A DNA stretch of 64,000 nucleotides from NCBI RefSeq assembly GCF_046105845.1, contig NZ_CP151004.1. One strand, given 5' to 3'. The DNA is from Escherichia coli (GTDB lineage Bacteria; Pseudomonadota; Gammaproteobacteria; Enterobacterales; Enterobacteriaceae). The position numbers were made by a program, and so were the translations under genes. Shown in pieces: positions 21,870 to 22,967 of the stretch. A model generated the notes under the pieces. That model ran no database searches, was not told the DNA's origin, and saw nothing but the letters and a program-made list of their open reading frames with translations. How positions within the stretch are numbered: position 1 is the stretch's first letter; every line of letters starts with the position of its first letter.

Positions 21870-22112
21870 TTACCATTCCTCGCGCAGCTTACGCTGGTAT
21901 TCGACACCATCTTCCTCACTCCCTTGCCAGATGCCAAAAGCACTGGCTCTTGCTGTTTGCGATTGATTTACCAGGTATTGATCTACCGCTTCCCGTAATA
22001 GCTCCGCACGAGGAAGATTACGCTGCACCTCGAGATCATCAAGTTGCTTAAACAACTCATTCGATAAATCGAGTAAAATTCTGCCCATATCTATACCTGC
22101 CAGAGAGTTCAT
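21870..22112 (-). CDS. yiiF: small ribbon-helix-helix (CopG/MetJ-like) protein
   Basis: 80-aa ORF (72 aa if internal ATG at 22088 is used); RHH-like [15 protein letters not shown]; symbol assigned by position next to fdhE. Confidence 0.6.
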
Positions 22113-22330
22113 AAATATCTCGCCAATATCATTTTTGAATCTATGGAGAGAAAAGTACCCTTGCCGAATCTTTAAAGAAAGCGCATTTACGCATCATTTT
22201 TTATTTTTGCGAGGCGTTTTCCAGATATGATGTAACAGTTGCAGTTATTATAAGTTCAAGTAAAACAGCCTTGTATTAATACCAGAATAAGGGCATCTGT
22301 TTTTTTATATTCAAGAATGAAAAATTTTTG

Positions 22331-22576
22331 TCATTCCTTATGCTCCTTACACTGATCATCAACACCAACTACCTCCCCCTTTTGCCTGCCTCCCTTTGCT
22401 TTACGCACCGGGAATTGCTGACGTTCCAGATATTGCTCTACCGCTTCGCGTAAAATTGCAGATCGTGAAACCTTACGCCAGCCCCTAAGCTTGTTCAGCC
22501 GTTTAATTGCCTCTTCTGATAAATGAAGAAAAACCGTATTCATCGCCATTACCACCACCTTACATATATTACTCAT
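22331..22576 (-). CDS. yiiE: small ribbon-helix-helix (CopG/MetJ-like) protein, paralog of the previous
   Basis: 81-aa ORF (72 aa from ATG at 22549); RHH-like VSRSAILREAVEQYL; tandem paralogous unit with conserved upstream motif. Confidence 0.6.
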   Translation of the reverse strand: MSNICKVVVMAMNTVFLHLSEEAIKRLNKLRGWRKVSRSAILREAVEQYLERQQFPVRKAKGGRQKGEVVGVDDQCKEHKE

Positions 22577-22967
22577 TAATGTATGTGCGAAAATTACGCC
22601 GAAAAATCATTTAAAAAAAGCGGATTTTTGCATGTCGTTTTGTTTTTGCGAGACGGCATCCAAAGATAATGTAACAGTTGCAGTTATTTCAATTGTTACT
22701 CAAAAATGGTTTAGTAATAACCCAGGATGGTTTATTACTTTTAATTAAGCGGGGACACATCTACAGAAAAGAAACAACAAATAATAAGGATGAATTATGG
22801 GTGCTATAAATATTTTATATTCAAGAATATTTTTTTGATTGGGTGTTCATTTGCTTCATCAGGATGGTGTACCCGAAAAAGTCAGCAGCTTTACCGCACC
22901 AGGGTTTAAGGTGAAATCTACCATTCATAACTGACCGGTCAGTGCCGCACCAACCGGTCTTTAATTG

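Follow-up and report, generated by a model that had tools for sequence, protein, structure and literature searches.

The 64,000-nt stretch of Escherichia coli contig NZ_CP151004.1 analysed here (the window) carries two small ribbon-helix-helix (RHH) genes, yiiF and yiiE, on the minus strand beyond the plus-strand genes fdoGHI-fdhE, the last of which ends at 21688. We consider it likely that yiiF is the vapB antitoxin gene of an old, vertically inherited chromosomal vapBC toxin-antitoxin (TA) module beside fdhE, that yiiE and yiiF are tandem copies of this antitoxin gene, and that the toxin gene vapC has decayed. The identification of yiiF follows from its homology and synteny with loci in which a single RHH gene and vapC lie beside fdhE. 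The closest E. coli match to this segment is strain VCSW7 (99.5% identity). In MG1655, YiiE and YiiF are each annotated as 72-aa proteins starting at internal ATGs, and the literature contains incidental mentions only, in expression survey lists and with yiiF as the site of a selectable cassette (PMC9551528).

Comparison with solved structures was used to identify the two proteins (Table 1). YiiF matches its own nuclear magnetic resonance (NMR) structure (PDB 2K5J; E = 1e-43) and, over residues 2-80 including the C-terminal tail, chain A of 7BY2 (VapB, 'CopG family'; also 7BY3; E = 4e-28), while the match of YiiE to the same chain is limited to residues 3-46, the RHH part. YiiE also matches Pfam RHH_1 (44.2 bits, E = 1.5e-11; cut-off of 20.5 bits), and YiiF falls under this cut-off with 17.5 bits. 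An N-terminal RHH domain is therefore found in both proteins, in YiiE by Pfam and in YiiF through the VapB chain, and a C-terminal toxin-binding region homologous to that of the VapB solved with VapC is found in YiiF and not in YiiE. The YiiF/VapB tail is nearly invariant between genera. The tail of YiiE can still be aligned to that of VapB codon by codon, but conserved residues have been lost (W to R, EED to VV and Y to D) and its pN to VapB is 0.45. Searches of YiiE, YiiF and a neighbouring 92-aa protein against PADLOC defence models and NCBIfam gave no specific family.

The 181 nt separating yiiF from fdhE are a vapC remnant. Using the intact VapC of Escherichia sp. E4694 as a tblastn query against the window, we recovered a frameshifted 5' piece (aa 2-29; 64%) and a 3' piece (aa 103-124 and the stop codon; 65% over aa 103-125), with flanking DNA of the two pieces matching at 86% and 96% in blastn. 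About 70 internal codons have been deleted, and the remnant ATG overlaps the yiiF stop codon (TAATG). Directly 3' of the antitoxin gene, the window thus has a frameshifted and internally deleted remnant in place of a cognate PIN toxin gene. An earlier note on this DNA had missed the remnant and had not recognised the two units as vapBC antitoxin copies. In K-12-type strains (E. coli PSS-16, locus L002 3150-3300, and similarly MG1655) an extra insert of ~150 nt, resembling repetitive extragenic palindromes (REP-like), lies between fdhE and yiiF and disrupts the vapC remnant further; it does not occur in the window.

Intact relatives of the module are widespread. In Citrobacter freundii and Salmonella enterica, a single 80-aa RHH gene, 73-74% identical to YiiF, lies between the fabY-side genes and fdhE and directly precedes a 124-aa PIN-domain gene, with overlapping stop and start codons. 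Over the Citrobacter and Salmonella genes compared, identity to YiiF is 70-75%. With E = 8.7e-63, the PIN protein encoded in intact loci is a match to 7BY2 chain B ('Ribonuclease VapC'). A scan of one genome per species yielded 34 loci, 28 of them non-Escherichia and from about ten genera (Citrobacter, Pseudocitrobacter, Salmonella, Klebsiella, Kluyvera, Trabulsiella, Lelliottia, Kosakonia, Cedecea and Franconibacter). All 28 non-Escherichia loci have a single RHH gene followed by vapC, partly decayed in three, and fdhE adjoins the locus in 26 of the 28. No second RHH gene was found within 2.5 kb of vapB in these loci. Salmonella 'VapC2' and 'sehCD' are not this module, as VapC2 lies on plasmid pSLT and sehAB/sehCD are higBA/relBE-like.

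Within E. coli, full-length vapC is present in 57 of 5,426 complete genomes. Strain 2016C-3878 has the gene order yiiE, vapB, vapC, fdhE, an intact yiiE-vapB-vapC is also found in Escherichia sp. E4694, and E. albertii has an intact vapC at the orthologous position. The vapB of 2016C-3878 (locus L047 1821-2875) is near-identical to that of E4694 (dS 0.04, versus 0.31 to other E. coli yiiF alleles), while its yiiE is E. coli-like (dS 0.04-0.07 to E. coli and 0.26 to E4694), which suggests either introgression of vapBC or recombination with a breakpoint separating yiiE from vapB.

The two units lie head to tail and can be aligned end to end in gene orientation. To set a baseline, segment identities were compared with global alignments of shuffled sequences. 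The most similar segment is a 79-nt block upstream of each gene, with 80% identity (63/79) versus 54 +/- 3.3% (maximum 65%) in shuffled alignments, and the RHH-coding part reaches 64% versus 54 +/- 2.6%. The tail-coding part (60%) and the 5' leader (55%) are, like the RHH part, moderately over baseline. Collinear similarity above chance thus extends along the whole unit, except for the spacer between two exact repeats, a 16-mer and a 20-mer, where identity is at chance level. At the protein level YiiE and YiiF share 39% identity over 71 aa (E = 3e-11), the alignment that the earlier note had proposed. Its description of yiiF and yiiE as tandem paralogous units agrees with this end-to-end alignment, similarity is not confined to short motifs as RHH, tail and leader are all over baseline, and coding sequence has, as it claimed, diverged more than the flanks (80% in the block versus 60-64% in coding DNA and 39% in protein). 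The motif that it placed after each gene on the plus strand does exist, although it spans 79 nt instead of ~45 nt, and it is upstream DNA, since both genes are on the minus strand.

Neither exact repeat has a further copy in the window. The 20-mer ATGTAACAGTTGCAGTTATT at 22230 and 22669 has two matches in the 64 kb with up to 3 mismatches allowed (0.00 expected), and the 16-mer TTTTATATTCAAGAAT at 22303 and 22813 also has two (0.06 expected). However, the window's exact agreement in the yiiE unit (20/20 and 16/16) is a minority allele, with 293 of 5,424 E. coli genomes covering at least 80% of a 1.3-kb query. The K-12 yiiE unit has 15/20 at the 20-mer and 12/16 at the 16-mer, and lacks ~64 nt. 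As E. fergusonii, E. albertii and E4694 all have these nucleotides, they were lost from K-12 by a derived deletion. Inter-unit identity of the block is 76-80% in MG1655, E4694 and E. fergusonii as well. The 16-mer occurs at both positions in E. fergusonii and E4694 with 0-2 mismatches, and it is missing outside Escherichia. Most simply, it would be part of the duplicated segment, at its 5' edge; a search for a third, decayed unit 5' of the second 16-mer gave chance-level matches only.

Two side observations concern the distribution of these units. The upstream region of yiiE in the window (22690-22975) is 97% identical to that of E. fergusonii and 77-82% to K-12-type E. coli, pointing either to an allele common to both species or to transfer at the locus. 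In addition, contigs labelled Bacillus coahuilensis m4-4 and uncultured Robinsoniella carry yiiE-yiiF whose proteins are 85-100% identical to those of E. coli; these assemblies are almost certainly contaminated with E. coli DNA.

Table 1 Coordinates of the features of the yiiF-yiiE region in the window.
Feature	Position	Strand	Details
vapC (PIN toxin) pseudogene remnant	21725..21870	-	tblastn of Escherichia sp. E4694 VapC, and blastn
yiiF, probable orphan vapB antitoxin gene	21870..22112	-	Open reading frame (ORF) of 80 aa; K-12 annotation from M9 (ATG at 22088), 72 aa
Degraded vapB proximal palindrome, TG-extended -10-like hexamer and Shine-Dalgarno (SD) sequence	22113..22132	-	Window AAAAATGATATTGGCGAGATATTT versus AAAAATGATATACTGGAGGTATAT in intact loci; compared with 2016C-3878
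Shared block, yiiF copy	22171..22249	-	Core CTGGAAAACGCCTCGCAAAA 22205-22224; Escherichia-only 20-mer AATAACTGCAACTGTTACAT 22230-22249
16-mer, unit-1 copy	22303..22318	-	ATTCTTGAATATAAAA; between yiiE stop and yiiF upstream region; probable 5' edge of duplicated segment
yiiE, probable tandem duplicate of vapB	22331..22576	-	ORF of 81 aa; K-12 annotation from 22549, 72 aa
yiiE-specific palindrome	22563..22585	-	CATACATT-AATGAGT-AATATATG; 14-36 nt 5' of K-12-type start; candidate YiiE operator, overlaps weak -10-like hexamer
Shared block, yiiE copy	22610..22688	-	Core TTGGATGCCGTCTCGCAAAA 22644-22663; 20-mer 22669-22688
13-codon mini-ORF	22797..22838	+	MGAINILYSRIFF; judged chance ORF
16-mer, unit-2 copy	22813..22828	-	Within palindrome ATATTC-AA-GAATAT; probable 5' edge of duplicated segment

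Since inter-unit homology begins at the 16-mer, covers both control region and gene, and stops a few bases inside vapC (GGAATGGTAATGGCAAAAAG versus GGAATGACAAAAAT), and no third copy lies upstream, yiiE is best read as a tandem duplicate of vapB with its 5' region. All organism-named YiiE homologs are from Escherichia or Shigella. Synonymous sites are saturated between yiiE and yiiF (pS 0.63, dS ~1.35), to the same degree as between yiiF and Citrobacter vapB (pS 0.64, dS ~1.43), in line with the suggestion of the earlier note that the duplication is old; it probably took place early on the Escherichia stem. The two copies appear to have followed different paths since then. The RHH domain of YiiE is almost invariant among Escherichia (dN/dS 0.00-0.07). 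At three beta-strand positions, which we take to be DNA-facing by analogy to CopG, VapB and YiiF have R/L/D and YiiE has T/F/H. Between the window and MG1655, both vapC-less, yiiF differs by 2 synonymous and 9 non-synonymous substitutions and yiiE by 1 and 0; these small counts point to relaxed constraint on the orphan yiiF and continued constraint on YiiE.

From these patterns we propose the following course of events. The ancestral state, still seen beside fdhE in many Enterobacteriaceae, would be vapB, encoding an RHH antitoxin and presumed autorepressor, followed by vapC, encoding a PIN RNase toxin. On the Escherichia stem, a tandem duplication of ~460-510 bp, from the 16-mer to a few bases into vapC, would have produced yiiE-vapB-vapC. 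The yiiE copy may then have kept its RHH domain under strong constraint while its DNA-facing residues changed, gained a palindrome of its own and lost the toxin-binding tail, leaving YiiE as a putative tail-less DNA-binding repressor. In most E. coli, vapC would have been destroyed by the frameshift and the internal deletion, after which the yiiF palindrome, -10-like hexamer and SD presumably decayed and its coding sequence drifted.

Several points weigh against this account. The synonymous saturation leaves the duplication undatable, and there is room for an older duplication followed by loss of yiiE outside Escherichia. The dN/dS contrasts are built on very few substitutions, and strains without vapC still encode a YiiF with an intact toxin-binding tail, a feature not predicted by simple decay. 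Promoters and operators were assigned from conservation and from consensus scans, which perform at chance level in the window (3 promoter- or terminator-like sites found in the region versus 3.9 expected). Possibly truncated supplement texts of three transcriptome studies list neither yiiE, yiiF nor their coordinates. Homology, synteny, the vapC remnant, lineage distribution, conservation patterns and natural chimeras were observed directly; promoter positions, the pairing of proteins with sites and repression itself are predictions.

To examine the control DNA of the two units, we aligned 25 upstream regions, 17 of which are non-Escherichia. Two elements stand out. The distal core (T)CTGGAAAGCGGCTCGCAAAA lies ~110 nt 5' of the start codon in most genera and in both Escherichia units, and is conserved in ~15 of the 17 non-Escherichia regions. 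The 20-mer directly 5' of the core is Escherichia-specific, and it fills the spacer of the best promoter-like site in the yiiE unit (TTGAAA-18-TATCTT, 22692..22663). The proximal element TGATATAC-TGGAG-GTATATATG is a palindrome with a TG-extended -10-like TATACT, overlaps the SD and ATG of the 80-aa form, and is the best sigma-70-type position weight matrix (PWM) match in most non-Escherichia genera. Its form ATATAC-N5-GTATAT is exact in 21 matching fetched loci, where it always ends at the vapB ATG, and all loci checked have an intact vapB-vapC. It is missing from vapC-less E. coli and E. fergusonii loci, and in the window the yiiF palindrome has been degraded to GATATTGGCGAGATATTTATG. The yiiE unit has a different palindrome, CATAYATT-N7-ARTATATG, which is present in 10 of 10 fetched loci with a yiiE-type 5' region, including a chimeric locus of E. 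albertii, and has two matches in the window (one site read on both strands; 0 expected).

Because the proximal palindromes changed together with the beta-strand residues, we read them as candidate unit-specific operators, and because the distal core did not change, it may serve something common to both units. The 79-nt block would then be inherited vapB 5' control DNA, with the core located at a distal promoter or just 3' of it and recognised by one factor that serves both units. This factor might be a trans-acting protein of the VapB type or a host factor.

Conservation of the block could also result from concerted evolution, in which gene conversion or unequal crossing-over between the copies, and not regulatory selection, keeps them alike. 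Recombination between the units is clear from natural chimeras that join the N-terminus of YiiE to the C-terminus of YiiF at the conserved LREAV(D/E)QYL, with reciprocal and later-junction forms also found. E. albertii carries such a yiiE'-'yiiF chimera with a yiiE-type 5' region, followed by intact vapC, and E. whittamii and one E. coli retain yiiE only. Among the 5,413 matching E. coli genomes, the median and the maximum are two block copies, and 478 have a single copy. The positions that are identical between block copies also vary by lineage in a mosaic-like way. However, the core is equally conserved 5' of single-copy vapB in about ten other genera, where conversion is impossible; conversion should have homogenised the adjacent coding DNA too, and that DNA is synonymously saturated; and the block remains at 76-80% in four lineages and is near-identical in none. 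We therefore regard concerted evolution as an unlikely explanation of the block as a whole. With the core conserved in single-copy loci and the adjacent coding DNA saturated, selection on the core CTGGAAA(A/G)CGnCTCGCAAAA is plausible and explains its conservation better than conversion, though some homogenisation of the block may have occurred. The case for selection is weaker for the Escherichia-only 20-mer and 16-mer, because both vary in the common K-12-type yiiE allele. The proposal of the earlier note that selection kept regulation thus holds in part: it fits the core, conserved across single-copy loci of about ten genera, but not the degraded palindrome, -10-like hexamer and SD of yiiF, the drift of yiiF, or the altered 20-mer of K-12-type yiiE.

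Given its spacing, the core could be seen as a promoter of another kind. With GG and GC 12 nt apart and both conserved between genera, the core CTGGAAAnCGnCTCGCA resembles a sigma-54 (-24/-12) promoter, its -12 region TCGCA is similar to bound sites such as CTGGAACGCTTTTCGCA, and the palindromic 16-mer ~96 nt upstream could be taken for an enhancer-binding-protein site. We rejected this reading on PWM score and on published lists from chromatin immunoprecipitation sequencing (ChIP-seq) and genomic SELEX (gSELEX), and find it highly improbable. In a PWM built from 85 ChIP-bound E. coli sites, the core scores 4.2 bits in yiiF and 2.5 in yiiE, while no bound site scores below 8.2; the score of the yiiF core is reached by 312 further 17-mers of the window. 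No sigma-54 ChIP peak near yiiE/yiiF is given in the main tables and searchable supplements, nor in the gSELEX list, and the supposed enhancer site is missing outside Escherichia. An intragenic sigma-54 site, CTGGCGCGAATTCTGCA, has been reported 468 nt upstream of fdhE, inside fdoI (Bonocora et al. 2015, PMC4591121); fdoI lies within the window, upstream of 20759. An RNA-level function of the block or leader was also rejected. Rfam gave a chance-level match only (E = 0.73), and for conserved structure RNAalifold returned an energy of 0.00 for 16-23 aligned sequences, with three alignment sets doing no better than column shuffles.

Both genes carry the annotation 'putative DNA-binding transcriptional regulator', which suggests that YiiE and YiiF could be independent functional transcription factors controlling other genes, with the shared motif as a common autoregulatory operator. 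Both ORFs are intact in nearly all E. coli, the RHH domain of YiiE is under strong purifying selection, and YiiF folds, as its NMR structure (PDB 2K5J) demonstrates. Nevertheless, this possibility seems rather doubtful to us. No third copy of the block exists in any of the 5,413 E. coli genomes, so we also rejected a regulon built on extra block copies. YiiE and YiiF have different residues at each of the three positions presumed to read DNA, making one shared operator unlikely, and where vapC has been lost, the yiiF sequence changes as if free of constraint, with degraded proximal control elements. Strains with a selectable kanamycin cassette placed in yiiF are viable (PMC9551528).

Among known systems, the locus is closest to VapBC with an RHH-type VapB (7BY2/7BY3). 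YiiF matches the VapB chain over residues 2-80, and in orthologous loci the PIN toxin gene comes directly 3', its start codon overlapping the antitoxin stop codon, and a palindrome covers the start region. In the window, unlike in such modules, the toxin gene is a remnant, the palindrome is degraded, an extra yiiE stands in tandem and the antitoxin is an orphan. Solitary antitoxins and 'anti-addiction' chromosomal TA remnants are a known category. Like these, yiiF has outlived its toxin and has retained the toxin-binding tail, but its substitution counts suggest drift.

Three-component TA operons with a separate regulator include omega-epsilon-zeta, where omega is an RHH repressor, and paaR2-paaA2-parE2. 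The order in E4694 and 2016C-3878, a tail-less RHH gene (yiiE) followed by antitoxin and toxin genes, is similar, although here VapB retains its RHH domain and yiiE is an antitoxin paralog with its own upstream region and a putative regulatory role. It is conceivable, though we hold it with little confidence, that YiiE is a new dedicated RHH regulator of a yiiE-vapB-vapC three-component module and that the 20-bp core is bound by a factor coupling this module to a cellular signal. Phage P22 has a side-by-side pair of paralogous RHH repressors with diverged operator specificity, Arc and Mnt, which are encoded by divergently transcribed phage immunity genes. YiiE and YiiF are likewise neighbouring RHH paralogs that differ in their beta-strand residues, each with a different palindrome, but their genes are head to tail, chromosomal and TA-derived, and their binding specificities are putative.

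The above analyses give yiiE and yiiF, long-unannotated 'y-genes' of K-12, a concrete origin and a testable function as RHH proteins that probably derive from the antitoxin of a vapBC module no longer present in most E. coli. The locus is of an ordinary kind, a decayed TA module with a few instructive details. Escherichia keeps all stages of its history, from single vapBC through yiiE-vapB-vapC and a chimeric antitoxin with vapC to orphan antitoxins and lone survivors, and thereby offers a compact natural series in which to follow TA duplication, change of DNA specificity and decay. The practical value is modest and lies in a corrected annotation (vapC pseudogene and orphan antitoxin) and in drawing attention to an upstream element with deep conservation.

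On the plus strand, the earlier note had reported a 13-codon mini-ORF in unit 2 whose unit-1 counterpart lacks the ATG, and both observations are correct. A real small protein encoded here, or by an overlapping 39-codon ORF (22790-22909) 5' of yiiE, would be consistent with an AGGA 5-8 nt 5' of the mini-ORF ATG, with the ATG being kept in 6 of 7 Escherichia sequences, and with a conserved hairpin and T-rich run 3' of the mini-ORF on the plus strand (22933-22959). We nonetheless consider such a protein very unlikely, as both frames vary in length and sequence through indels in the seven sequences. Neither frame nor length is kept in the mini-ORF (13, 13, 21, 37, 24, 8 and 16 codons, with indels of 1, 4, 5 and 20 nt), and the 39-codon ORF is equally unstable and missing in two of the seven. 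Conserved mini-ORF residues coincide only with the DNA-level 16-mer, there is no Rfam match, and neither the locus nor its K-12 coordinates are listed in the ribosome-profiling supplement searched. The mini-ORF most likely exists by chance in AT-rich DNA. The hairpin itself (GACCGGTCAGTGCCGCACCAACCGGTC, then TTTAATTG) is terminator-like, with no plus-strand gene evident, and its stem is conserved throughout the seven Escherichia sequences, K-12 among them, with 0-2 substitutions.

Directly 5' of yiiE on the same strand lies the 92-aa ORF (22968-23246), for which Pfam, NCBIfam and PADLOC gave no match. Gene calls in E. fergusonii and E. albertii include this ORF, there preceded by one of 70-73 aa; K-12 and E4694 lack it. 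Further upstream, a second TA-like pair is encoded on the minus strand (23605-24207). Its members are an HTH_3 protein of 96 aa, named nadS in a near-identical strain and matching MqsA_antitoxin weakly and below threshold, and, from an adjoining gene (~23896-24207), a 103-aa protein with a weak RelE match. K-12-type strains are without the whole yiiE-fabY segment, including an alpha/beta hydrolase and a transposase, and at the corresponding place Salmonella carries a HigB_toxin and HTH_3 pair.

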